Source: Candidatus Helarchaeota archaeon (GTDB lineage: Archaea; Asgardarchaeota; Lokiarchaeia; Helarchaeales; RDOG01). Taken from it: a stretch of DNA of 17,500 bases. The position numbers and the translations under genes were made by a program. Shown piece after piece: positions 1 through 17,500 of the stretch; within the stretch, counting starts at the first letter, position 1; the number at the start of each line of letters is the position of its first letter. The stretch spans positions 1 to 17,500 of the forward strand of contig JALGVI010000102.1 in the NCBI GenBank assembly GCA_029838215.1. Direction: 5' to 3'. The notes under the pieces are model-generated. The model was not told the origin of the DNA. It did not search any database and saw only the letters and a list, made by a program, of their open reading frames with translations.

Positions 1-179
1 GCGGGCTGCCCTAACTCGCGCCCCGCGCGCACGCGCGACACTTCCAAGACGCTGAACCTGCGGTGCCCGCCCGCCGTGCGAACGCAGCGTATCTTGCCCG
101 CTCGGTCCCACCTTCTTAAAGTCTTCGCGCAAACACCGAGCTCTGCCGCCGCCTGCCCTATCCTCAGCCACGAACTCAT
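1..179 (-). CDS. tnpA: IS607-family serine-recombinase transposase TnpA, N-terminal MerR-like HTH (partial, runs off the window edge; not in the ORF track)
   Basis: Manual translation of the minus strand from ATG at 179 gives MSSWLRIGQAAAELGVCAKTLRRWDRAGKIRCVRTAGGHRRFSVLEVSRVRAGRELGQP. This matches the IS607 TnpA HTH pattern (A..LGV...TLRRW...GKI...RT.GGHRRF). The catalytic domain is outside the window. Confidence 0.9.
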   Translation of the reverse strand, partial: MSSWLRIGQAAAELGVCAKTLRRWDRAGKIRCVRTAGGHRRFSVLEVSRVRAGRELGQP

Positions 180-293
180 GATGAAAAAGTACGGCGAAAG
201 TGCTAATTAAAACGCGTGTCATCACGGGAACACCGCGTGAAAAAATTTAAACGTGCAGGATTGTCCAAGTTTTACGAAGCTGATGATTAACCT
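1..293 (-). mobile_element. IS607-family insertion sequence, left end plus start of tnpA (partial)
   Basis: The 114 bp upstream of tnpA (180-293) match 17387-17500 in inverted orientation at 111/114 positions. Homology stops at an AGG junction (GG at 292-291 on the minus strand), consistent with the GG crossover dinucleotide described for IS607. Confidence 0.85.
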
Positions 294-1405
294 TTGTAGA
301 TACGACGAGCAATATGCGGTAAATCTAATGTTTGTGGAAGTTGATGATTAATATTAAAAAATTCTTGTATTTCGAGAATCGCTGCCTTTAATCCTTCCTC
401 ACCGTGATATTTATAACTTCTTTTGTCTATTTGACCAAAAACATGAACTAACATGTCGTTCCAAGAATGAATATCCTTCTGTTTCCACCGGCCATGATAA
501 ATCGAGCGGGCTATGTGCATCAGATCAGTAGTTCGTGGCATTTTTTGATGCTCAGAATAAAAAGCTCGCATATCAGAAATAGCTTCATTAAACAGACTTT
601 CATTATCAGGTTTAATCTTGTTTATTTTTCTCTTTTTCTTCTTATTCTTCCATTGAATTACTTGATCTTCTCCAAATGCTAAGATGAGTAAATCTTTCCA
701 CGATTTTACTTTTATTCTTGCAAATTGACCACGACTAAGTAAAACCGCTATTGATCTCAAGGCCATGTCATTTTTTCGTGGTTCCCGCTCATTTTCTTTG
801 TAAATGTCCTTAATTTCTTCATTGCACGTCTTAATCCATTAACACCAACGTATTTATTAGCTTCTCTGTTGATTTTTTTAAAGACATGGAGCAATAGCTC
901 ATTCCATGAATTTATGCCGTATTTCTCCCAATATCCAATAACAATTCTGCCAATAATTCGCCGCATTTCGCTTGCTTTTGGAATTCTTCCATTCTTCATT
1001 TTAAAAATCCGTAGCTCACTAGCAGCAAGCTCCAATCCAAGCTTGCCTTCATCCTTTATCTGATCTTCTAAAATTTCTTCCATTTTCGTCCCAAATAATA
1101 AATCCTTGGCTACGCGCTTGATTTTAAAGATAGGTAATTCAAATTTTTCGGCAACATCCTTTAATCGAGCCCCCATTAAATAGGACATCCTTTAATCGAG
1201 CCCCCATTAAATAGGAGATACCAGCCTTGTATCGACGTTTAAATTCACCTAGCAACTCTTCAGAATAGAGTTCGGGATAGAAAATCCTGAAATTATCAAG
1301 CGACCAGGCTGGCAACTTGAAAAATCTTCGATCTTTTAAGTCATATTTCTTTAATTCCTTAGGTTGGTAAGTATTAAATAGAGTTATTTCTCCGTTGGTT
1401 GCCAT
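287..1405 (-). pseudogene. Disrupted paralog of the transposon-associated tandem-repeat protein (6073-7623)
   Basis: ORFs 1139-1405, 757-1188 and 287-766 align consecutively to the 516-aa protein (RFFKLPAWS vs RFHKLPAWS; GKLGLELAASELRI vs GKLGLERAASELRI; FGEDQVIQW vs FREDQIKKW). Breaks: 31-bp tandem duplication at 1154-1215, a 1-bp deletion near 802-804, and IS607 truncation at ~293. Confidence 0.88.
1154..1215. repeat. Perfect 31-bp tandem duplication (ACATCCTTTAATCGAGCCCCCATTAAATAGG x2)
   Basis: Copies at 1154-1184 and 1185-1215 are identical. Removing one fuses ORF 1139-1405 with ORF 757-1188 in frame (ISYLMGARLKDV|AEKF). Confidence 0.97.
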
Positions 1406-3394: not shown

Positions 3395-4615
3395 TTGAAG
3401 ATATTTGTGGATGAAGCTTTAATAGAAGAGCTTGATTTTACTTCTGAAGGATATCCTACTGAATTCTCGATGGAATATTCATTTTTAAATCCACAAATTC
3501 TCGGAGATCACACTATATCAATAGAAGCTTGGGATGCAGATTTGGACCGAGGTTCAATCGATCAACTTTCTGAGAGTTTCACGGGATCTTTTCAAACAAT
3601 CGACGATGACACGACAGCTCCAACAATAGAAATTGAGTATCTAGAAGGAGATGGAACCGATGGTAGTCCTGGACTATTTACTTGGGAAATAATGGATGCT
3701 GATGATGGAGTTGGGGGCGATGGAGATCTGGGATTTAGTAACATTGAGATTAAAGTTGATTATGTATCTTCCGATAATTCAGAGGATTTTACCATTTCAC
3801 TACCCGCGAGCGAAGTGGGAAGTTGGAACCTACCATCTAATTTAGGGACATATACGATAACTGTAACGGCAACGGATAATGATGACGACCGGACGTCAGA
3901 CAGTCTGACAACTACATCATTGATAAATCAAGTTATAATAGATGATGATGTCTTACAACCCGTGATTTCTGACTTGCAAATAATGGATGACTTTTTGAAT
4001 ATAGCAATTTCATTCAACGCCATAGATGATAATGCAGGAGATGACCAAGGAATCAGGGAGATAAATATCTTCATTGACAATGAGCTAGTTGTAAATTATG
4101 CTCCGACACCGATAGAAATCTCATATAATTTCGAATTATCTAATGACCGGATCATGGAGATTGGAGATCATCTGGTGAGAGTTGAAGTAACGGACGCGGA
4201 TGATGATAGGTCAATGGATTCTCTAATGACTTTAATTGAAGAATCTTTTGAAGTGACTCTCGAGGAGACCAAACAATACGTTAATTGGGAGATAGACCAC
4301 TTGAATGAGGCAATTCAAAGCTCTTCTGACGACTGTTGGAGAAACCCCGCGAGCAATCGAAAGGCAACAATGTCCGAAAAGTTAAATGAATTGAAGGTCT
4401 TAATAACGATAAACGAGTTTGAAGAAGCATATGACAAGTTGTTGCATGACATCAAGCCTAAATTAACTGGTCTAAAAACTGACGAAAATGAGGAGCCTTG
4501 GGGTGGTGGCATCTTTAATAATCCTTGGGTTACTTGCCCTGAATTACAGGAGATATTTAAATTAGATTGCAATAGAATTTTAGCTCATCTTATAGTATTA
4601 ATTTACGGAGCTTAA
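3395..4615 (+). CDS. C-terminal part of the same surface protein: acidic Ig-like repeats and a C-terminal helical domain
   Basis: This frame is open from 3239 (NNYATKEKEFQVIDDDIAIPVV...). Repeated xxIDDDxxxPxI linkers and G-x-[HY]-x6-D-x-D-x-DR-x2-3-D-x-L loops are present. One extra A at 3238-3240 would join it to 1608-3275 as a 1002-aa protein. Confidence 0.75.
   Translation: MKIFVDEALIEELDFTSEGYPTEFSMEYSFLNPQILGDHTISIEAWDADLDRGSIDQLSESFTGSFQTIDDDTTAPTIEIEYLEGDGTDGSPGLFTWEIMDADDGVGGDGDLGFSNIEIKVDYVSSDNSEDFTISLPASEVGSWNLPSNLGTYTITVTATDNDDDRTSDSLTTTSLINQVIIDDDVLQPVISDLQIMDDFLNIAISFNAIDDNAGDDQGIREINIFIDNELVVNYAPTPIEISYNFELSNDRIMEIGDHLVRVEVTDADDDRSMDSLMTLIEESFEVTLEETKQYVNWEIDHLNEAIQSSSDDCWRNPASNRKATMSEKLNELKVLITINEFEEAYDKLLHDIKPKLTGLKTDENEEPWGGGIFNNPWVTCPELQEIFKLDCNRILAHLIVLIYGA
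4452..4600 (+). repeat. Copy 1 of a 149-bp direct repeat (3' end of the surface-protein gene)
   Basis: 135/149 identical to 5470-5618 by manual alignment. Confidence 0.92.
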
Positions 4616-5410: not shown

Positions 5411-5469
5411 TCAAATAAAAAGATTATAAGTGCTTTGGATTTATTATGTGATAACGTTGTAATATGGCC

Positions 5470-5624
5470 TCAAACCTAAATTAACCGGTCTAAAAACTGA
5501 CGAAAATGAGGAGCCTTGGGGCGGTGGAGTCTTTAATAATCCTTGGGTTACTTGCCCTGAATTGCAGGAGGTATATAGATTAGATTGCAATAAATTTTTA
5601 ACTCATATCATAATATTAGGTTAG
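5470..5624 (+). pseudogene. Orphan 3' remnant (50 codons) of a paralogous surface-protein gene; copy 2 of the 149-bp repeat
   Basis: Translates as KPKLTGLKTDENEEPWGGGVFNNPWVTCPELQEVYRLDCNKILTHIIILG*. An in-frame TAA at 5460-5462 lies just upstream and there is no start codon. Confidence 0.85.
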
Positions 5625-5743
5625 GGGACATCTCAGACTAATGGTAAATCAAATAAATGCCGAATTAGACCCTTTTATAAACGCTTTAAATTTGATCTAA
5701 ATGTCAGAGAGGAATGAGTTTGCTTTAAATTTAGCAATGAGAA

Positions 5744-6072: not shown

Positions 6073-7623
6073 CTATTTAAAGGCAATCCTTAACAAATCA
6101 TTCCATTTCTTTATTCCGAATGCTGACCAATAACCCCTGTAAATACTGTTAATAATTGTAGGCATTCCTTTATCTTTCGCGCGAGGTCTTCTATGATTTT
6201 TCTTTTCAAATGCATTCAACATAACTATTGCCCTCCTAAGCCCTTCTTTACCTTTATATTGGTTTTTCATTTGATTAACTTCGTTAAAAGTGGATTGGAG
6301 TAAATCATTCCAAAGAAGAATCCCATGTTCCTTCCAATATCCTCTTTGAACAGCATGAAATATAGCACACATGTCTTTGGCGGTTGGTATCCTCCCTTTC
6401 TGATCTTGAAACTTCTTTAATTTAATTTGAGCATTAATTAATCCTTCTTCACCTAGATACTTCCCTTTTTCTTGATTCACATCTGAAAAAATGCAAAATA
6501 AAAGATCATTCCAGCATGAAATTCCGAATTTCTGCCAATTGCCATTTGAAATTGATGTAGCTATGCTAGGTAGCTCTCTTGCACGTGGTTTTCTTCGATT
6601 TTTTTTGTAAAAATCACGGATTTTTCTGGAAGCTCGGTCGAGCCCAGTAATACCAACATGCATATTTCTTTCAACATTTATTTTTTTAAAGACATAATTC
6701 AGCATTTCATTCCATGTCGTAATCCCAAAACATTTCCAATGACCCCGCCTTATTGTGTTAACGATCCAAGAGATTCCCTTATCATTCATTGAAGGTAAGC
6801 GTCTATTCTTTCTTTGGATTTCACGCAACTCTGATAAAGCTCGGTTGAAACTTTTTTTATTTGCGTGCTTTGGAGGTTTTTTCTTCAGATCTTCCCATTT
6901 TTTAATTTGGTCCTCTCTAAAAGATCTCAAGAGTAATTTTTTCCAAGTATTTATCCCAAGGTGCTTCCAAATACCGCTATATGCCGCATTAAATATGGAT
7001 TTGATTTTCTTATCTTTATAATCTGGCTTTTTGCCATTTTTCATGTAATATTCTTTTAGTTTTGTAATCGCACGGTCCAAACCTTCTATGCCATTATATT
7101 TACCGAATTCTACATTAATGCTCTTGAATACGTAGAATAGGAGGTCGTTCCATTTTGTTATACCAAAAGTCTCCCAATTACCCTCGGCAATTCTTGAAGC
7201 CACATTGCCCATCTTTCTGGCGGCTGGTATTTTTTTGAATCTCTTTTTAATTATCCTTAACTCGCTTGCTGCCCTCTCGAGTCCAAGCTTCCCTTTATAA
7301 GTTATTTGGTTTCTTAATATGTCCTCCATGCTCTTCCTAATAATGAGATCTCTTGCGAATCTCTTAATGCCGAGAGCGGTTTGTCCATATTGTCTAACAA
7401 TTTGTTTCAAGGATTTACCATTTAGGTAATCAACAGTTGCATTGAATTTTTGATTGAATTCTACAAGAACTTCAGTCGAATAAAGCTCGAAATCGGTTAG
7501 TTCATATTGATCTCCCGACCAAGCGGGTAATTTGTGGAATCTAGAATCTTTATTGGTTTCTTTTATTAGTACATGAGGCTGATAATGTGTGATAAAGTCT
7601 ATTTCAGGCTCAATTTCCGACAA
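6073..7623 (-). CDS. Basic tandem-repeat protein (N-terminal HTH-like region plus six ~67-69-aa repeats); putative DNA-binding/target-selection factor of the transposon
   Basis: Repeat consensus G..GL.RA...L..F..KN.R.P...D....I...I..G.W..FGI..WNDLL...F..IN. It loosely resembles the homing-endonuclease-associated repeat (..GR.P....FG.WN.AL). The gene lies 20 bp downstream of tnsC on the same strand. There is no TniQ-type CxxC zinc-finger pattern. Confidence 0.75.
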   Translation of the reverse strand: MSEIEPEIDFITHYQPHVLIKETNKDSRFHKLPAWSGDQYELTDFELYSTEVLVEFNQKFNATVDYLNGKSLKQIVRQYGQTALGIKRFARDLIIRKSMEDILRNQITYKGKLGLERAASELRIIKKRFKKIPAARKMGNVASRIAEGNWETFGITKWNDLLFYVFKSINVEFGKYNGIEGLDRAITKLKEYYMKNGKKPDYKDKKIKSIFNAAYSGIWKHLGINTWKKLLLRSFREDQIKKWEDLKKKPPKHANKKSFNRALSELREIQRKNRRLPSMNDKGISWIVNTIRRGHWKCFGITTWNEMLNYVFKKINVERNMHVGITGLDRASRKIRDFYKKNRRKPRARELPSIATSISNGNWQKFGISCWNDLLFCIFSDVNQEKGKYLGEEGLINAQIKLKKFQDQKGRIPTAKDMCAIFHAVQRGYWKEHGILLWNDLLQSTFNEVNQMKNQYKGKEGLRRAIVMLNAFEKKNHRRPRAKDKGMPTIINSIYRGYWSAFGIKKWNDLLRIAFK

Positions 7624-7643: not shown

Positions 7644-8654
7644 TTATTTTCTCTTTTTCTTAACCGGTTTCTGAGTTTTTGATACACGGTTCTTTACTGC
7701 AATTTTACCATTCATGATCTCATAAGTGAGATGAAATACGGTTTTATAATCCTCTTCCGTAATATTCGTCCGATTTTGTAAAAGAGCATGCACCGCACCA
7801 TACCTGACAATTTGAATTAATTTCCCCAATCGTCCTCTTGATAATTTATGTAATAACTTGGCAATTGTTGGGTTAATCTTGCCATCTTTATTTGTGAGGT
7901 CCCAGTCAGGTAGAAAATCTCCATACGCTTTGTAGATTGAGTATAACAGGTCTAGATATTCTTCATTAATTTCCCATGCTGGAAGGTTTAGTGGTCTGAA
8001 CCGTTCTTCTACCCAATCAGCCGCGTGAAATAATTCGAACGCTTCTGGCGTTCCTATAAGAATAATCCGGGTTTGGCTTTGATTAGTGAGTTTTTTAAAT
8101 CCATTGAAAATGTCTTTTTTATCTTCTAAGTCCGCTTTAATCAAATTCTGGATTTCATCAATGAAAAGGAGTCTAACTTTTCGAGATTTCAATTCTTTTA
8201 TTATCCTGTCAATTAAAACGTCCGTATGGGTGTTTCTCAACGCAGATCCATGTATTTCGATGCCAAATGTTTCCAATATAGCAGAGAACATGCGTTTAAG
8301 CGTGACACGTACCGGTGTCTCATAATATAAAATATCCCATCTAGAAAAAGGTATTCCTTCTTTTTTTGCAATGAGCTTACAATAATTCATGTACTTTATC
8401 ACCAGGGTCGTTTTTCCCGTATTAATTTCCCCTGAAATGAAAAGAGATAGTGGTCTTACTTCAGAATTAACATCGGGATTATCGTGATATTGGAGAGCTT
8501 GCAAGAATGCAACATCGATTTCATCGCAAATTTGCCTCGCTCGATTATATTCAAACCATGCTTGGTATGTAAGAATTTCTGTAGCTTGTTCGACTCGTTT
8601 TCTTCTTTCATGATCATGAGATGTAAGATCATGAATACTGGGTGCTTTAATCAT
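7644..8654 (-). CDS. tnsC: TnsC/TniB-family AAA+ ATPase
   Basis: Walker A GEINTGKT, Walker B LLFIDEIQNL, IILIGT and ERFRPLNLPAW (TniB-type RF...LP.W). Starts 3 bp after the transposase stop. Confidence 0.9.
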   Translation of the reverse strand: MIKAPSIHDLTSHDHERRKRVEQATEILTYQAWFEYNRARQICDEIDVAFLQALQYHDNPDVNSEVRPLSLFISGEINTGKTTLVIKYMNYCKLIAKKEGIPFSRWDILYYETPVRVTLKRMFSAILETFGIEIHGSALRNTHTDVLIDRIIKELKSRKVRLLFIDEIQNLIKADLEDKKDIFNGFKKLTNQSQTRIILIGTPEAFELFHAADWVEERFRPLNLPAWEINEEYLDLLYSIYKAYGDFLPDWDLTNKDGKINPTIAKLLHKLSRGRLGKLIQIVRYGAVHALLQNRTNITEEDYKTVFHLTYEIMNGKIAVKNRVSKTQKPVKKKRK

Positions 8655-8657
8655 TTT

Positions 8658-11258
8658 TTAACCTTCCATATATTCTTTACTTGGATATTTACTCGTTTCT
8701 AATCCTTTCGATTGGTATTTTTGAAAGATTTCTTCATTATTTGGTTTATCAGAATCCATTAATTCAGGTTGATATGTCTTAAAAAGTAGATCATCATATT
8801 CATCCAATTCGGAATTAATTGGAATGTTTCTTTCTTTATTCACCAAAATTTTGCTTTGAATACTTTTACGGCTACTCTCTTTTACCTTTTCTTGTTCCCT
8901 TCGGACACGTTTCGACTCCTTCTTGGCAGTGCTCACTAACTTTTCTCGTTCTAGTCTAGAATATTCTTTCCTAAAGCTATATGGCGTTAATCTGTTCTTG
9001 ACTCGAATTTTAATTGCTTGAACGTCTCTCTGCCAAGCCGACGCATAAATTGGTAAATTTCCATATGCTTCAAGTAATGTTGCTGCCCAACCGCTTGCGA
9101 GCTCAACTTTGATGGGATTATTATCGATAGGGTTAATAACCCATATATATCGAATATCTTTTCGATCTAACAATACAAATACTTTCTGTTTTTCTCCTAG
9201 GATGTTAAATATTCGTGATAATTCCTTATTATTATATTTCAGATATCGTTTGGTTATACCATCACTTCTCAGAGTACGCTTATCTTTATCAAGGGTGTCG
9301 AGATATAATAAAGCAATTTCCCGATGGTTTCGTGGCGGTTCTCTTGGTAATGGTATAATAATTTTTGAACTAGAGCATTTGATATCATCGAATTTTACAA
9401 AAGGTGCCAGAACATGGTCATCGTAAGAGTTTGTAAAATGATATTCATCAACTATCCATTTATGCAACCATTTTTCGATCTCTTGTAGGGTACAAACAGC
9501 TTCAGCTTCTGGTTTTAAATCGGGATTTTCTAGACGTTTTCGTAGTAATGGACGATATCCTGGAACTTCATCTTTTATTCCTTGACGTAAAACGTTGAAC
9601 CATTGTTCAATAAATGCTTTATAGCGGGGGGTTCTAACAGGAGCGTATTCAAGGATGATGTCGTACTTCATGCAGAACTCTTTCAAGGCTAGAGACCTAT
9701 AATCCATTCCATTATCCACCAAAATGAGAACTGGAAATCCTTGGATGGGCCATTCTTGCTCAGTCTCGTATATTTGTGTATAATTTTTCTTTGATAAGAT
9801 ACTTTGTACAAGAACTTCAAGAACAGTTTGACTCGAACTCGGCGAGAAAGAGAGATAAAACCCTGTTATCATTCGTGTATGACAATCAATGGAGGCAGTT
9901 AAATAGGGAGTGGATAATGGAAGGCGTTGCTCTGAATCTACTAGAAATACATCAAATGGCGTGTTATCAAATTGAAGGACTTGCATCGGACCAACCGCTT
10001 CTTGAAAAGAAGCAAATGAAGGAGTGAAATCTGACTTGTGAGCACGTCGACCTCGTTTATAGTAAGCGAGTTCTGAAGCTGTAGTGTTATAATTAACATA
10101 TCGACGAAATGAAGATATACTAGGTGGTGATGTTTCGGATTTCTTACATAATTTTACAAGATTGTTAAAAGCCTTCTTTAAAGTTATATTGGGTTTTAAA
10201 TATTGTTTCCGAGCTTTCTCTATCAATTCAAAAGTACTTTGATCGAACTTTTTTGGTCTTCCTGCATTTTTAAAATTTGGAACAAGACCATTAATCCCAT
10301 TTTTTTTGTATGATGAAATCCAGTAATAAAGTGTTCTTTGGGGAACCATCCATTGTTTACAGAAATTTTTTCGCCATTGTGATGTCCTCTTTTTTGAGGG
10401 TTGTTTTAACCACGCCTTCACTATCAAGTGTCGCTTCTCAACTTCTTCTTGATACTTTAGAGGAATGTTTGATGAAATTGATTTTAAAGTAGCATCTTCA
10501 AATTCTTGAGAATCAGTCGTATCCTCACTTGTTTGATCTAAAAACCAATCATATTCCTCCCATAATGGCTTAAAAGGAAATCTTTTAATCCTTGTTCTCT
10601 TTCGAATAATAGTATCTTCTGATAAACGTCTTGTAGAAAAAGTATCAACAAATACGAGTCCATGATAAATTGCATAACAAATAATTTGACTAGCTTTTCC
10701 AATTTCGACTCCTAACTCCTCAGCTAATTGAAAACACAGGAGATTATATTTCTCTCCATCTGGAGATATTAATAAAACGAGACTCTTGATATATTTATCG
10801 TTGTCAATACATTTAGATGCTCCTAAAGCATACCAAATATTCGCCATCCGAGTGGTTTTTATTTCTTTTTCGGTTATTACTGCAAATAAACAGCCATTTC
10901 GTTTTGCCCAAGATTTTGCAGCCGCGAATTTTAGCTCAAGCTCTTCATAGTTATTTAATAATGATTCTTCGTTCTTGATTTCTACTAACACACAATTTCC
11001 ATCAGAAAATTCAATATAGACATCAGGGGTGTAGCTTTTCGTTTTTCCCTTTTCATCCTTATATTCTATTTTAACTGGTTGGTGTTGATATCGTATTACA
11101 GCAGGATCATGTTCAAGTTGAAGGTAAAAATTTCGTTCGAGCTGAGATTCGTATTCGACAAATTTCTCCGGAACTTTATTTGATGGAAAAAATCCGCGAT
11201 TTCCTCGCGTCTTTGGTGGTATCTTACGGACTGAGGACCAATTTATAGACATTGCCAA
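8658..11258 (-). CDS. tnsAB: Fused TnsA endonuclease / TnsB DDE transposase (TnsAB); ATG at 11252 is an alternative start
   Basis: N-terminal TnsA motifs ESQLE, QP, YTPD and VEIK. Central HTH (QRTLYYWISSYKKNGINGL...GRP). DDE core QFDNTPFD, IDCHTRMITG, VDNGMDY, KAFIEQWF. Mu-type C-terminal region. One uninterrupted ORF. Confidence 0.92.
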   Translation of the reverse strand: MAMSINWSSVRKIPPKTRGNRGFFPSNKVPEKFVEYESQLERNFYLQLEHDPAVIRYQHQPVKIEYKDEKGKTKSYTPDVYIEFSDGNCVLVEIKNEESLLNNYEELELKFAAAKSWAKRNGCLFAVITEKEIKTTRMANIWYALGASKCIDNDKYIKSLVLLISPDGEKYNLLCFQLAEELGVEIGKASQIICYAIYHGLVFVDTFSTRRLSEDTIIRKRTRIKRFPFKPLWEEYDWFLDQTSEDTTDSQEFEDATLKSISSNIPLKYQEEVEKRHLIVKAWLKQPSKKRTSQWRKNFCKQWMVPQRTLYYWISSYKKNGINGLVPNFKNAGRPKKFDQSTFELIEKARKQYLKPNITLKKAFNNLVKLCKKSETSPPSISSFRRYVNYNTTASELAYYKRGRRAHKSDFTPSFASFQEAVGPMQVLQFDNTPFDVFLVDSEQRLPLSTPYLTASIDCHTRMITGFYLSFSPSSSQTVLEVLVQSILSKKNYTQIYETEQEWPIQGFPVLILVDNGMDYRSLALKEFCMKYDIILEYAPVRTPRYKAFIEQWFNVLRQGIKDEVPGYRPLLRKRLENPDLKPEAEAVCTLQEIEKWLHKWIVDEYHFTNSYDDHVLAPFVKFDDIKCSSSKIIIPLPREPPRNHREIALLYLDTLDKDKRTLRSDGITKRYLKYNNKELSRIFNILGEKQKVFVLLDRKDIRYIWVINPIDNNPIKVELASGWAATLLEAYGNLPIYASAWQRDVQAIKIRVKNRLTPYSFRKEYSRLEREKLVSTAKKESKRVRREQEKVKESSRKSIQSKILVNKERNIPINSELDEYDDLLFKTYQPELMDSDKPNNEEIFQKYQSKGLETSKYPSKEYMEG

Positions 11259-11455
11259 TCATTTTGATAAAAAGAAGATCGCACTATATATATGGTGCCA
11301 GACATTTTGAAATTCTTGATACATATTGCCAAACATTATGAATTTCTTTTTTCCAGAATTGTTTGGCGATAAACCAGAAGAATGATCCTCAGAACTATTT
11401 CTGCATTCCCTTCATTGCTAATCATTATGAATTTTCTCATAATGTTTTCATGCCA
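11253..11455. repeat. Candidate transposon end: six ~17-bp sites (consensus TGCCAAACATTATGAAT), putative TnsB-binding sites
   Basis: Forward: TGCCAATCATTTTGAT (11253), TGCCAGACATTTTGAAA (11296), TGCCAAACATTATGAAT (11327), TGCTAATCATTATGAAT (11416). Inverted: CGCCAAACAATTCTGGA (11368-11352) and TGAAAACATTATGAGAA (11450-11434). Confidence 0.7.
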
Positions 11456-11492
11456 TCTGTTGAGAGAGTATCTTTTAGAGAAAAGATCTTGA

Positions 11493-12464
11493 TCAAACCA
11501 GTCTTATCCAAACGGTTCTATCGTTATCCATGGGAAATTTAGAAACTCTCATGTTCTTAAATGCGTCAGGCATGATGATCTGGTAACCTTTTCCTTTTAC
11601 ACTATAAAACCCGATTTGATTGTCTAAGTTAGTTTTAAGCCTCTTAGCTTTATTCTTTATTAAATCTGAAATATCATGGTCATTTATTGCCTTATTGACC
11701 ACTTCTCCAATTGTCATGCTTGATGTATACCCCGGCCTATAAGGATCGTCAATATCGATGAAGAATTGGTCCGTTTGATTTTTATCGAGAAATATCACGA
11801 GTTTGTATCGATTTTTAGCAAGAACTTTAAGTCTTCTTTTCTCTTGAAATTTTTCCAGCTTGCTCGGATCTGATACTTCTAAATGAAATTCTATTGCATA
11901 CTCTTTATATAAATATTCGTTTTCAATAATATCTTCTAAGATTTCTTTTCCTTTATGGTTGCCCATTTTTGCGAGGATATAAGCAAGATTAATTTTTTCT
12001 CTCAATTCTTCAGTCTTATTCAATTCCTTTTCAATTACGTCCGTAACTTTTGGATTCTTAATTTTAACAAATATTTCAGCAATATTCCTTACTACTTCGT
12101 TAGAAAAAAACCAAACTTTCAACAGTTTAAGACTTGATTTAAGATTGCTTACATCTGCTATCAATGAAATCGTTTTAATGGTTTCTAAATTATTTAAACG
12201 ATATGGATTAAATGAACTTAATTTTTTATTATGTTCTATTGACAGAGCAATTAATTTCTCTGCAGTTTTATTATCTCCAAGTTTACCTAAGGCATTAAGA
12301 ATAGGTATTTGTTCTGACCTATATCCTTTTTTCATTAAGTTACGTAGCTTTTTTAAAAGCGGCTTATTAGCTTTTGGAGAGTTGAGTTGAATCAATTGAT
12401 CGCAGATTTCTTCCGTTTTGCTCCTATCAGATTGGAGTTGATTTAAAAGCTCTTTAAGATTCAT
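11493..12464 (-). CDS. HEAT (PBS-lyase-like) repeat protein with an unassigned C-terminal domain
   Basis: HEAT-like units ILNALGKLGDNKTAEKLIAL and NLAYILAKMGNHKGKEILEDII. The last ~105 aa have a distinct alpha/beta character. Confidence 0.7.
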   Translation of the reverse strand: MNLKELLNQLQSDRSKTEEICDQLIQLNSPKANKPLLKKLRNLMKKGYRSEQIPILNALGKLGDNKTAEKLIALSIEHNKKLSSFNPYRLNNLETIKTISLIADVSNLKSSLKLLKVWFFSNEVVRNIAEIFVKIKNPKVTDVIEKELNKTEELREKINLAYILAKMGNHKGKEILEDIIENEYLYKEYAIEFHLEVSDPSKLEKFQEKRRLKVLAKNRYKLVIFLDKNQTDQFFIDIDDPYRPGYTSSMTIGEVVNKAINDHDISDLIKNKAKRLKTNLDNQIGFYSVKGKGYQIIMPDAFKNMRVSKFPMDNDRTVWIRLV

Positions 12465-12468
12465 GACG

Positions 12469-12499
12469 AAAAAAAAAAAAATCTTTATTTAAGTTTTTC
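12469..12499 (-). promoter_or_regulatory. Putative archaeal BRE-TATA promoter followed by a T13 tract, upstream of the HEAT gene
   Basis: The minus strand reads GAAAAA CTTAAATA AAGA T13 CGTC ATG, with the TATA ending about 22 nt before the ATG (leaderless-type spacing). Confidence 0.45.
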
Positions 12500-12763
12500 T
12501 ATACTTCGGTCTTAGGTTAGTCCGAAATTTTAGTTACGGCTTAAATCTGTTTCAATAAATCTAGATTTAGCCAAAAATTCATTAAACAGAAAAAGTCGGC
12601 AAGAAATGATCCGCTCTGAATTTCTGACCTACCCAAATTCTTGTTTATATAAAAAACATGATTTTTCGAAATATTTGTCGATAAATCGCATGGCTGGTCT
12701 ATATTATTGCCTGATTACTAAAAGACTTGATAATCTTTTTAAAGAAGTTTTAAATCGTTTTAA

Positions 12764-13087
12764 ATGATGAATAAAAACCAAACAAAAACCCTGATTTGTG
12801 TTCTAACGGCAGGATTATTCTTCATTCCTTCGGTTATCTTTGATTTATGGTTTCTCATTCCAATTGGAGCCATATTTGATTGGTTGCCTTTGCCGATGGG
12901 ATGGATGAAAGGTGAAGAAAAAACAGAACGAAAGAAAAATTTAATCATAATCCATGCCATAATCACCGTGATAGCTTATATTTTCGCAATCATTTGGATT
13001 TTTACGCTGATATGGATTTATAAGTTCTTATTTTTGGAAATCTGGTGGGCGGCGGTCATAATTGGAGTATTCTTGATTGGAAAATGA
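12764..13087 (+). CDS. Hypothetical multi-pass membrane protein
   Basis: 107 aa with about 3-4 hydrophobic segments and a charged loop (KGEEKTERKK). Confidence 0.7.
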   Translation: MMNKNQTKTLICVLTAGLFFIPSVIFDLWFLIPIGAIFDWLPLPMGWMKGEEKTERKKNLIIIHAIITVIAYIFAIIWIFTLIWIYKFLFLEIWWAAVIIGVFLIGK

Positions 13088-13099
13088 GGAAAATTTGCT

Positions 13100-13930
13100 C
13101 TAAGCCTTACCGCGGCGTGCATCTTCTTTCTTTTGAATCTCTTCATATGGGTCGTGGTAGAATGATAAATAATATTTTGCTGCCAGTTCATCCAGATCCC
13201 AATATTCTCCCTGCAGGGATTGGATGCTTGCAAAGACTCGCTTTGCGTTTTCCGTGAATCCGCTTGAAGTTATGATGTAGGCATAGTCAATGCCGTATCT
13301 GCTTGCGAATTTTGAGAATTCTTCAATTGTTTCTTGGTCGACCAGCTTGTTGAAGTAATGAATTCCTTGTATGAATATACGATTTCCGAAGATTTGTTGA
13401 ATTCTCAGTTTTTCTTGCGTGTAATCTGCGATGCGGAATCCCTTTTCGAACAATACATCGGCAATGGGAAGGAATTTGAAATTATTTTTTTCAAAAAATC
13501 GTTCGATTATGTCCATGAAGCCCGATTGGTCAACAGACAAGATCCAGTTCTTGATCTCTTCCGTTCGAGTCCTAAAATCTTTATAATCTTTTTCTTGCAG
13601 GAATATTTGATATTTATAATTTAATAACTTGATTTGTTGCTGTAAATACCTAAAACTCGTTTCATAATTTTCTTTACTGATGGTATTTGACTCTCTTTTC
13701 TTTTCAAGTTGATCTAGTCCTTCGCTCAATCGCAAGATTCGAAGTTGGAAATCTTTTTCAGATTGAATGACGAATCCTTCGACTTTTAGTTCGGTTATTT
13801 TAAACTGATTTGATTTTTGCTCCGCCTCATTTGGTACAATTTTTACTTCCTTTTCAGTTTCATCTTTCTCGTCTTGTTGTTCGGCTTGTTTTTCTTTTTT
13901 CCATTCCGGAAACATGATATCGCGAACCAT
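13100..13930 (-). CDS. Charged/coiled-coil N-terminus plus C-terminal Mrr-like (type IV restriction endonuclease fold) domain, apparently degenerate
   Basis: The C-terminal pattern IFIQGIHY...VDQETIEEF...YAYIITSSGFTENAK...WDLDEL matches the Mrr_cat tail (xQxK...v....v.ef...iT.s.FT..A...d...L). The catalytic Lys position reads Ile. Confidence 0.6.
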   Translation of the reverse strand: MVRDIMFPEWKKEKQAEQQDEKDETEKEVKIVPNEAEQKSNQFKITELKVEGFVIQSEKDFQLRILRLSEGLDQLEKKRESNTISKENYETSFRYLQQQIKLLNYKYQIFLQEKDYKDFRTRTEEIKNWILSVDQSGFMDIIERFFEKNNFKFLPIADVLFEKGFRIADYTQEKLRIQQIFGNRIFIQGIHYFNKLVDQETIEEFSKFASRYGIDYAYIITSSGFTENAKRVFASIQSLQGEYWDLDELAAKYYLSFYHDPYEEIQKKEDARRGKA

Positions 13931-17386: not shown

Positions 17387-17500
17387 AGGTTAATCATCAG
17401 CTTCGTAAAACTTGGACAATCCTGCACGTTTAAATTTTTTCACGCGGTGTTCCCGTGATGACACGCGCTTTAATTAGCACTTTCGCCGCCCTTTTTCATC
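17387..17500 (+). mobile_element. Second IS607-family left end (inverted relative to the copy at 180-293); tnpA expected to start just beyond the window
   Basis: 111/114 identity to the reverse complement of 180-293. Begins at AGGTTAATCATC and ends exactly where the ATG follows in the other copy. Confidence 0.85.

Follow-up and report, generated by a model that had tools for sequence, protein, structure and literature searches.

A repeat protein in the selector slot of a Tn7-like operon

The stretch of DNA analysed here, 17,500 nucleotides that make up contig JALGVI010000102.1 of a Candidatus Helarchaeota assembly (GCA_029838215.1; hereafter the window), carries the operon of a Tn7-like transposon, the third gene of which encodes a protein of tandem repeats, P0001. 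The operon comprises the following genes.

8658 to 11258, minus strand: TnsA–TnsB fusion gene (tnsAB), 866 amino acids
7644 to 8654, minus strand: TnsC/TniB-type AAA+ ATPase gene (tnsC), 336 amino acids
6073 to 7623, minus strand: repeat-protein gene (P0001), 516 amino acids, from the open reading frame (ORF) list and its translation; TTG start, stop codon at 6073–6075

The first gene appears to encode a TnsA-type endonuclease and a DDE TnsB transposase in one 866-residue fusion: its product matched PF08722 (67.4 bits), NCBIfam TnsA_like (51.7 bits), Mu-transpos_C (22.3 bits, above the cut-off of 21.7) and rve (28.6 bits, below the cut-off of 32.6), and it also carries two helix-turn-helix (HTH) domains, HTH_32 and HTH_28. 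The second product matched PF05621 TniB at 97 bits (E 1.2e-27). All three genes lie on one strand, in the order tnsAB (11258..8658), tnsC (8654..7644) and repeat gene (7623..6073), with gaps of only 3 and 20 nt. As the third gene, directly after tnsC, the repeat gene occupies the slot of TniQ/TnsD. No TniQ domain was detected in P0001, nor in the 3.6-Mb assembly (genome 94% complete) at E ≤ 0.01. Our reading, to which we assign a probability of roughly 0.6, is that P0001 is the target-site selector of a Tn7-like transposon in a Helarchaeota-type Asgard archaeon and does the job of TnsD/TniQ without a TniQ domain.

P0001 consists of six three-helix units behind an HTH-like module

P0001 runs from an N-terminal peptide through an HTH-like module of ~60 residues into six tandem units (R1–R6) that continue to the C-terminus.

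7501 to 7623, minus strand: N-terminal peptide, residues 1–41, low-confidence model
7309 to 7500, minus strand: HTH-like four-helix module, residues 42–105, immediately before R1; AlphaFold2 helices 50–67, 72–79, 83–94 and 99–106
7123 to 7308, minus strand: R1, residues 106–167, short class, helix 2 GNVASRIA
6916 to 7122, minus strand: R2, residues 168–236, +2 class, helix 2 KSIFNAAY
6685 to 6915, minus strand: R3, residues 237–313, +2 class, helix 2 SWIVNTIR, with an atypical long basic linker, EDQIKKWEDLKKKPPKH
6484 to 6684, minus strand: R4, residues 314–380, short class, helix 2 PSIATSIS
6283 to 6483, minus strand: R5, residues 381–447, short class, helix 2 CAIFHAVQ
6076 to 6282, minus strand: R6, residues 448–516, +2 class, helix 2 PTIINSIY

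The units share 28–46% pairwise identity and the consensus y.G..GL.RA...L.....kn.r.P.a.d.....I...i..G.W..fGI..WNdLL...F. A repeat hidden Markov model (HMM), seeded on these six units and iterated over relatives until it covered 721 units from 164 related proteins, scored each of R1–R6 at 67.6–94.1 bits; scores of this size (68–94 bits) mean that the repetition in P0001 is not a chance pattern. The original prediction, made from the letters of the window, had described six repeats in two length classes within a strongly basic protein, and all of this held. The length classes arise from a 2-residue indel just before helix 2, absent from R1, R4 and R5 and present in R2, R3 and R6. The protein has a pI of 10.07, with 104 K+R against 53 D+E, and contains four Cys in total. 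The long R3-type linker recurs in unit 3 of a paralog elsewhere in the window (described below).

The full-length AlphaFold2 model, run on a 56-sequence family alignment, had a mean predicted local distance difference test score (pLDDT) of 90.9 and a predicted template modelling score (pTM) of 0.51, and a two-unit model of R5–R6, from an alignment of 44 two-unit fragments, gave 91.0 and 0.51. At the N-terminus, pLDDT fell below 50 at residues 1–7 and 13–24 (10-residue block means of 43–48 over residues 1–30 and 73 over 31–40). Each unit is modelled as a three-helix domain: a helix 1 of ~19 residues (G.GL.RA...L..F....), a loop around the invariant proline, an 8-residue helix 2 that is the variable segment of the original prediction, an 11-residue loop (RG.W..FGI..) and a 9-residue helix 3 (WNDLL...F). 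Because the units reach a pLDDT of ~91 while the pTM is 0.51, they look confidently folded with an undefined mutual orientation, as beads on a string and not as a rigid TALE-like (transcription activator-like effector) or PPR-like solenoid. Structure prediction of tandem repeats had been proposed as a check on the array, and it thus returned rigid units but no fixed orientation between them.

Some relatives carry the same module behind a TniQ domain

The P0001-type N-terminal module is common to 73 of the 164 family representatives. In ~65 of these 73 it follows a short, TniQ-less N-terminus with the motifs [LF]..Y.P+.L, D.RF.K..AWS and pEfYS, which are conserved across 22 TniQ-less relatives. 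Five representatives instead carry a TniQ domain in place of the short peptide, followed by the same HTH module and 2–11 repeats. Four of them pass PF06527 (cut-off 27 bits): P0017 at 56.6, P0032 at 52.7, P0059 at 43.0 and P0066 at 30.8 bits; the fifth, P0087, was assigned by homology to P0017. Residues 42–104 of P0001 align to residues 294–356 of the TniQ-fused proteins (E 1e-15 to 1e-19), and the 41-residue peptide of P0001 stands where its fused relatives have their TniQ domain. The HTH module and array, which would be the DNA-binding part, are homologous to the part appended to TniQ in these relatives and would be analogous to the C-terminal domain of TnsD.

The [LF]..Y.P motif was also seen in the C-terminal tail of TnsAB (DLLFKTYQPEL, window 8766–8786), besides the N-termini of P0001 (DFITHYQP, 7576–7596) and of its paralog (TLFNTYQPKEL, 1361–1381), and the similar ENYEPKLL occurs in the TnsB tail of a related locus (L037, below). 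The shared motif may be a common TnsC-docking peptide, although this is only a hint.

Named relatives are all Asgard, and some recur behind tnsC

A HMMER search of 1.84 billion cluster representatives returned 215 relatives at E ≤ 1e-3, of which 79 reached E ≤ 1e-30. Relatives with a source name are all from Asgard archaea (Promethearchaeota, Helarchaeota, Odinarchaeota, Heimdallarchaeota, Hermodarchaeota and Hodarchaeota). Of 400 sampled genomes of the phylum, 22 had a match; these belong to 11 of 85 genera, a scattered distribution that fits mobile DNA. The retrieved proteins hold between 1 and 17 units each, with a period of 69 amino acids in 41% of cases, 67 in 15% and 66–70 in 79%; unit number and order vary between relatives, and only unit 1 is positionally orthologous.

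Larger contexts were examined for seven homologs. The order TnsA/B, TnsC, repeat protein(s) was found in three, from three genomes of two other Asgard families.

L034 (G160:C46): TnsAB and TnsC, followed by tandem genes for two repeat proteins (373 and 925 amino acids; 8519–12454)
L035 (G075:C27): TnsAB and TnsC, followed by tandem genes for two repeat proteins (373 and 422 amino acids; 8030–10383)
L037 (G060:C353): separate TnsA and TnsB, TnsC and a 511-amino-acid repeat protein

The TnsC proteins of these loci share 27–40% identity with that of the window. A second repeat gene stands in tandem after tnsC in L034 and L035, and on the far side of the cargo in the window element; a pair of selectors per element would recall TnsD/TnsE or dual-TniQ systems. 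In L035, a shared TTTTCCAAAATAA-TGATAA motif lies on both sides (~1677 and ~14316), and a clean terminal inverted repeat with a 5-bp duplication was looked for there without success; a search for element ends in L037 gave nothing clear. Two wider searches added no Tn7 locus: a related-locus search among genome contigs with P0001 returned no relative, and a metagenome scan with the family member P0002 returned three loci, none with Tn7 genes.

The contexts also bear on whether P0001 might instead be an independent DNA-binding regulator or accessory factor, a piece of cargo or a neighbour without a role in target choice. Four of the seven contexts hold neither TnsB nor TnsC, and family members are also fused to methyltransferase domains or to an uncharacterised C-terminal extension of 160 amino acids. 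Against this stand the tight operon place directly after tnsC in four independent genomes, the TniQ fusions of the same module and the fact that no other selector candidate was found in the element or genome, and we consider such a passenger role quite unlikely.

The extended proteins (P0037, P0016, P0055, P0025, P0065 and P0062) lack the N-terminal module, and their ~160-amino-acid C-terminal extension has no Pfam match; P0037 (locus L036) adjoins very large HEAT-repeat proteins and not Tn7 genes. The methyltransferase fusions are P0049 (2049 amino acids, 17 units) and P0069 (1072 amino acids, 7 units), both to class-I domains, and P0049 also has stretches resembling a LexA-type DNA-binding domain. 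These two are possibly sequence-directed methyltransferases.

The units form a divergent branch of the PF18780 superfamily

P0001 matched no family above threshold in Pfam, NCBIfam or PHROG. Several of its relatives do pass PF18780 (gathering cut-off 26 bits): P0049 at 98.1, P0032 at 63, the 925-amino-acid protein of L034 at 48.2, P0037 at 42.5 and P0011 at 34.8 bits; another, P0005, passes PF14882, the ‘integrase repeat unit’, at 27.1 bits (cut-off 26.5). PF18780 was matched by 7 of the 44 two-unit family fragments (best E 5.5e-6), the R5–R6 fragment giving no hit, and a six-frame search of the genome with the same model found nothing at E ≤ 0.01. The window-seeded repeat HMM detects the units of P0049 (17–51 bits each), P0032 and P0037 in the same regions that pass PF18780, and for this reason we place the units of P0001, by sequence, in a divergent and so far Asgard-only branch of the PF18780 repeat superfamily. 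The likeness to the homing-endonuclease-associated repeat that the original prediction had noted therefore stands for the relatives (35–98 bits), whereas P0001 itself stays below threshold.

A Pfam scan found no nuclease domain in P0001. No HNH domain was seen among the family's fusion partners, which are TniQ, methyltransferase domains and uncharacterised extensions, and a search among shorter proteins with the most PF18780-like part of P0049 returned nothing at E ≤ 1e-5 and no link to named HNH endonucleases. The only paper found to name both PF18780 and PF14882 lists them among repeat families without known structure (PMC8078820).

An acid-poor, fast-changing surface on helix 2 and the preceding loop

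Column statistics were taken over the 721 units and 68 unit columns, and surface exposure was judged from helical periodicity and conservation. About 24 of the 68 columns are conserved family-wide: G11, G14, L15, A18, L22, F25, R31, P33, D37, I43, A46, I47, R49, G50, W52, F55, G56, I57, W60, N61, D62, L63, L64 and F68. The scaffold that had been called nearly invariant is thus present in all its parts (G..GL.RA, P, G.W and FGI..WNDLL...F), but near-invariance reaches no further than these columns, and the segment from P to G.W, described as variable, contains the conserved buried positions I43, A46, I47 and R49.

The notion of one hypervariable helix fared similarly. The six variable segments had been quoted exactly and helix 2 is the most variable helix, but the linker, the exposed face of helix 1 and positions 65–66 come close to it. 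Mean entropy at the exposed helix 2 positions (41, 42, 44, 45 and 48) is 3.63 bits, the highest apart from the 3.65 bits of positions 65–66; the linker has 3.43 and the exposed variable positions of helix 1 have 3.12 bits. Across 156 unit pairs of 60–75% identity, differences per column were 0.49 in helix 2, 0.41 in the loop before it, 0.40 in the linker, 0.38 in helix 1, 0.29 in the loop between helices 2 and 3 and 0.21 in helix 3, so that helix 2 changes at 1.35 times the rate of the average column (0.49 versus 0.36). In unit 1, the single clearly orthologous unit pair between P0001 and the paralog, 14 of 19 helix 1 residues are identical compared with 2 of 8 in helix 2.

Column chemistry says more than variability does. 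At its variable positions, helix 2 has 40% polar residues (N, Q, S, T, H, Y), 20% G/A, 18% basic and only 5% acidic ones, and the loop at positions 30–40 is likewise poor in acidic residues; the variable positions of helix 1 are 22% acidic, resembling an ordinary solvent face. Basic residues frame the face formed by helix 2 and the loop (R31, 85% K/R family-wide; K38, 49%; R49, 67%). Variability and acid-poor chemistry together make helix 2, with the loop that precedes it, the best candidate for a ligand-reading surface.

These same data can be read differently. The array could bind DNA by its structure or without base specificity, or bind a host protein, and so steer the element to a kind of DNA as TnsE does; in that case drift or arms-race variation, not a code, would lie behind the variable surface. 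TnsE of Tn7 works with replication structures and the sliding clamp. Compatible with this are variation that touches every exposed face and reaches just 1.35 times the average in helix 2, the lack of conserved unit order and number beyond unit 1, and a right-end neighbour gene that is not conserved, and the two selector-like genes per element (window paralog, L034, L035) recall the TnsD/TnsE pair. However, the exposed helix 2 face is selectively depleted of acidic residues while polar ones abound, a composition that would suit a base-reading surface, and the same module is fused to TniQ in the manner of the sequence-specific DNA-binding domains of TnsD-type selectors. We regard TnsE-like steering as unlikely, if worth keeping in view.

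Structural comparisons

Searches with the predicted structures gave leads and no close match to a solved structure. With the two-unit model, Foldseek found no match in BFVD at E ≤ 0.001, and a PDB sequence search with the repeats found none; the non-significant BFVD rows include giant-virus ‘helicase-associated domain’ proteins, which are a lead only. The best VIA match of a unit was residues 616–668 of SauUSI, at a weak Z of 4.5. N-terminal DNA-binding domains of the TetR family made up about half of the top 50 VIA rows (Z 3.4–4.4, rmsd 2.3–3.4 over ~50 residues), and VIA warns that Z values of this size may reflect a common helical arrangement only, which leaves ‘HTH-like’, as applied to the units, a lead and not a result. 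The original prediction had called each unit an HTH-like module; the matches to TetR-type domains are weak (Z 3.4–4.5), and helices 2 and 3 are joined by an 11-residue loop and not by a tight turn. The HTH-like module preceding R1 gave higher values, to Mu transposase I-beta (4fcy_B, Z 6.4) and TrpR-like 3g1c (Z 6.3), and it also matched residues 345–409 of chain M, a chain not identified as TnsD, in the TnsABCD–DNA transpososome entry 9bw1 (Z 4.9).

An RNA-binding role for the array, as a helical repeat like PPR or PUF, was suggested by designed PPR proteins among the non-significant top rows of Foldseek, at a probability of ≤ 0.08. No significant structural match was found, the units are three-helix domains without fixed packing (pTM 0.51) and do not build a two-helix solenoid, and the genomic context is one of DNA transposition; RNA binding of this type is very improbable.

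The right end, the paralog and their surroundings

Two further features of the window probably belong to the element.

11250 to 11440, plus strand: probable right end, with four direct copies of TGCCAAWCATTWTGAW at 11253, 11296, 11327 and 11416
287 to 1405, minus strand: diverged repeat-gene paralog beyond the cargo genes, disrupted in this assembly

The cluster of TGCCAAWCATTWTGAW copies is unique in the assembly, and 0.01 copies of its 21-nt form are expected by chance. A candidate terminal TCA, the complement of a ‘tga’ end, lies at 11437–11439 and would mark the exact terminus. The cluster lies upstream of tnsAB, and ~55–60 nt separate its outermost copy from the stop codon of the neighbouring HEAT-like orphan (11493–12464), an arrangement resembling that of Tn7 at attTn7. 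The cluster is probably a Tn7-type right end with putative TnsB sites. Its innermost copy (window 11250–11270) overlaps the tnsAB start codon, a position from which the transposase could repress tnsAB.

P0001 might instead act on the element itself, its array binding the transposon ends or controlling tnsAB expression in an architectural or repressor role. In favour are the four direct repeats of the right end, the innermost over the tnsAB start codon, and the resemblance of the HTH module of P0001 to the end-binding I-beta subdomain of Mu transposase. End binding in Tn7-family elements is, however, the job of TnsB, TnsAB here has HTH domains of its own, and both gene position and TniQ fusions favour a selector, so an end-binding or repressor function seems improbable to us.

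Next to the HEAT-like orphan, within 11493–13930, is a gene for an Mrr-type restriction endonuclease (PF04471, E 7e-8), and the element's location may be a variable or defence island, not the flank of a housekeeping gene. HEAT-repeat genes as a common target were considered and rejected: the neighbour gene is an orphan only marginally similar to other family-adjacent HEAT genes (E ≥ 0.03).

The paralog is broken twice, by a perfect 31-nt tandem duplication (1154–1215) that shifts the frame and by a frame change near 793–835, and its 3′ end is cut at 287–290 by a GC-rich repeat. A public protein of 332 amino acids with four repeats, P0022, reads through the two breaks; the longest contig listed for it is 20,502 nt, as for P0001. 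As 31 nt is a common assembler k-mer, the duplication may be an assembly artefact and not a real pseudogenising mutation.

At both ends (window 1–293 and 17387–17500) the contig runs into the same repeat, in inverted copies of 114 nt and 97% identity, which at the left continues into a stretch of ~56% GC (window 1–300) in a genome of ~33% GC. Further copies lie at C11:1-123, C72:2509-2623 and C25:4037-4069, and an internal copy, 85% identical, at C112:130023-130300, inside a GC-rich island of ~450 nt. The repeat matched no Rfam family, and Pfam found no domain in three ORFs that flank or overlap the C112 copy; a mobile element, a structured RNA and an assembly chimera are all conceivable identities for the repeat. 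Within the cargo, the last 171 nt (4438–4608) of the gene at 3395–4615 recur at 5456–5626 with 87% identity as an orphan 3′ fragment, and small membrane ORFs lie between the two copies.

Weighing the selector model

The selector slot, the TniQ fusions, the PF18780 relatives, the methyltransferase fusions and the acid-poor helix 2 with its flanking R31 and R49 lead us to read the array as a nucleic-acid recognition module, most likely one for a DNA target. On this basis we propose that the six three-helix units and the preceding HTH-like module would bind an extended stretch of DNA beside the future insertion point. The rigid units, joined by a conserved FGE[VI]N...Y.G linker, would wrap along the DNA as beads on a string. 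Turned to the DNA would be an acid-poor, fast-evolving specificity face, made of the post-proline loop and helix 2 (positions 34–36, 41, 42, 44, 45 and 48) and framed by R31, K38 and R49. The N-terminal peptide (residues 1–41) would recruit the TnsC ATPase in place of a TniQ domain, and TnsC would then bring in TnsAB, with insertion at a fixed distance and the right end facing the bound site. The repeats, the operon place and its recurrence in other genomes, the TniQ-fused relatives, the predicted fold of a unit and the column statistics are observed; the face that contacts DNA, the recruitment of TnsC by the peptide and the position of the target are points that we infer.

A stronger version, close to the zinc-finger- or TALE-like recognition code of the original prediction, is speculative and in our view has only a small chance of being right: each unit of 67–69 amino acids would read a short run of base pairs through helix 2 and the preceding loop, 2–17 units would specify a long site, and the array with its short TnsC-docking peptide would direct Tn7-type insertion as a protein-only, re-codable guide for a transposase.

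Several observations weigh against P0001 as a selector or against its array as a unit-by-unit reader of DNA. At the level of the element, no inverted copies of the right-end motif and no left end were found in the window or assembly, the contig breaking at position 290 in a GC-rich multi-copy repeat, and no target-site duplication was found. The gene beside the right end is an orphan without a match in 30 other genomes searched and is not a conserved housekeeping gene. In the four of seven contexts without TnsB or TnsC within reach, the neighbours are mutually unrelated, which means that the family is not exclusive to Tn7-like elements. At the level of the protein, variation spreads beyond one helix, and the scaffold outside helix 2 is not ‘constant’. 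P0001 itself gave no PF18780 hit at E ≤ 0.1 and reached only 14.1 bits, below the cut-off, with PF14882 INT_rpt. Foldseek with both models found no match in PDB at E ≤ 0.001, and the structural matches of the units are weak (Z ≤ 4.5). Superposition on TetR puts the invariant WNDLL helix, not the variable one, at the canonical recognition helix, with helix 2 as the first HTH helix. DNA binding by the array is itself something that we infer.

Significance and comparison with known systems

TniQ counts as the hallmark protein of the Tn7 family, and the sole survey of archaeal Tn7-like transposons was, to our knowledge, a search for TniQ. An element with a TniQ-less selector would show that TniQ-based surveys undercount the Tn7 family, and would raise the question of how TnsC is recruited. 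It would also give PF18780, a repeat family without a solved structure or reported function, its first functional context, in the target choice of a transposase. Should the units turn out to read DNA modularly, they would provide a new scaffold on which to design DNA recognition and protein-guided Tn7-type insertion.

The survey (Thesier et al., Peters laboratory, 10.1101/2025.07.27.667033) used the TniQ Pfam model as its signature and reported 27 TniQ proteins; with that signature it could not have found the window element. The same work assayed transposition of a Heimdallarchaeota element in E. coli by mate-out (10.1101/2025.07.27.667033). In agreement with the operon described here, it found fused tnsAB in elements of Helarchaeota and Promethearchaeia and ‘tga’ ends in a Helarchaeota element (10.1101/2025.07.27.667033). 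It describes tandem C2H2 zinc-finger arrays as the DNA-binding domains of archaeal TniQs, and a text search of it found no PF18780-type arrays or TniQ-less selectors, no ‘HNH’, and ‘repeat’ used only for DNA repeats and zinc fingers (10.1101/2025.07.27.667033). The restriction of the P0001 family, so far, to Asgard archaea is of evolutionary interest. The zinc-finger arrays of archaeal TniQs are eukaryote-like (10.1101/2025.07.27.667033).

P0001 and its units recall several known systems. With the N-terminal domains of the TetR type they share a three-helix unit of ~50–60 structured residues, but their variable helix is the second and not the third. Myb repeats are tandem three-helix DNA-binding domains, and both zinc fingers and Myb repeats behave as beads on a string. 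C2H2 zinc-finger and TALE arrays resemble P0001 in their near-constant period, conserved inter-unit linker, variable copy number (2–17 units in the P0001 family) and subset of fast-evolving exposed positions; they differ in that the units of P0001 are much larger, vary beyond 2–4 positions and are not predicted to form a rigid superhelix. In PF18780 and PF14882 the same tandem pattern is found (G..GL..A...L..F....G+.P ... G.W..FGI..W.D.L), but the P0001 unit has 67–69 amino acids against a 54-position model, P0001 has no attached HNH nuclease or integrase domain and its named relatives are all Asgard. The selectors TnsD and TniQ, finally, correspond to P0001 in lying directly after tnsC in a tnsA(B)–tnsC operon and in a modular build with a C-terminal DNA-binding part, which in P0001 is predicted; P0001 departs from them in having neither a TniQ domain nor a zinc ribbon, and in a predicted DNA-binding part that is an array of PF18780-type helical units.

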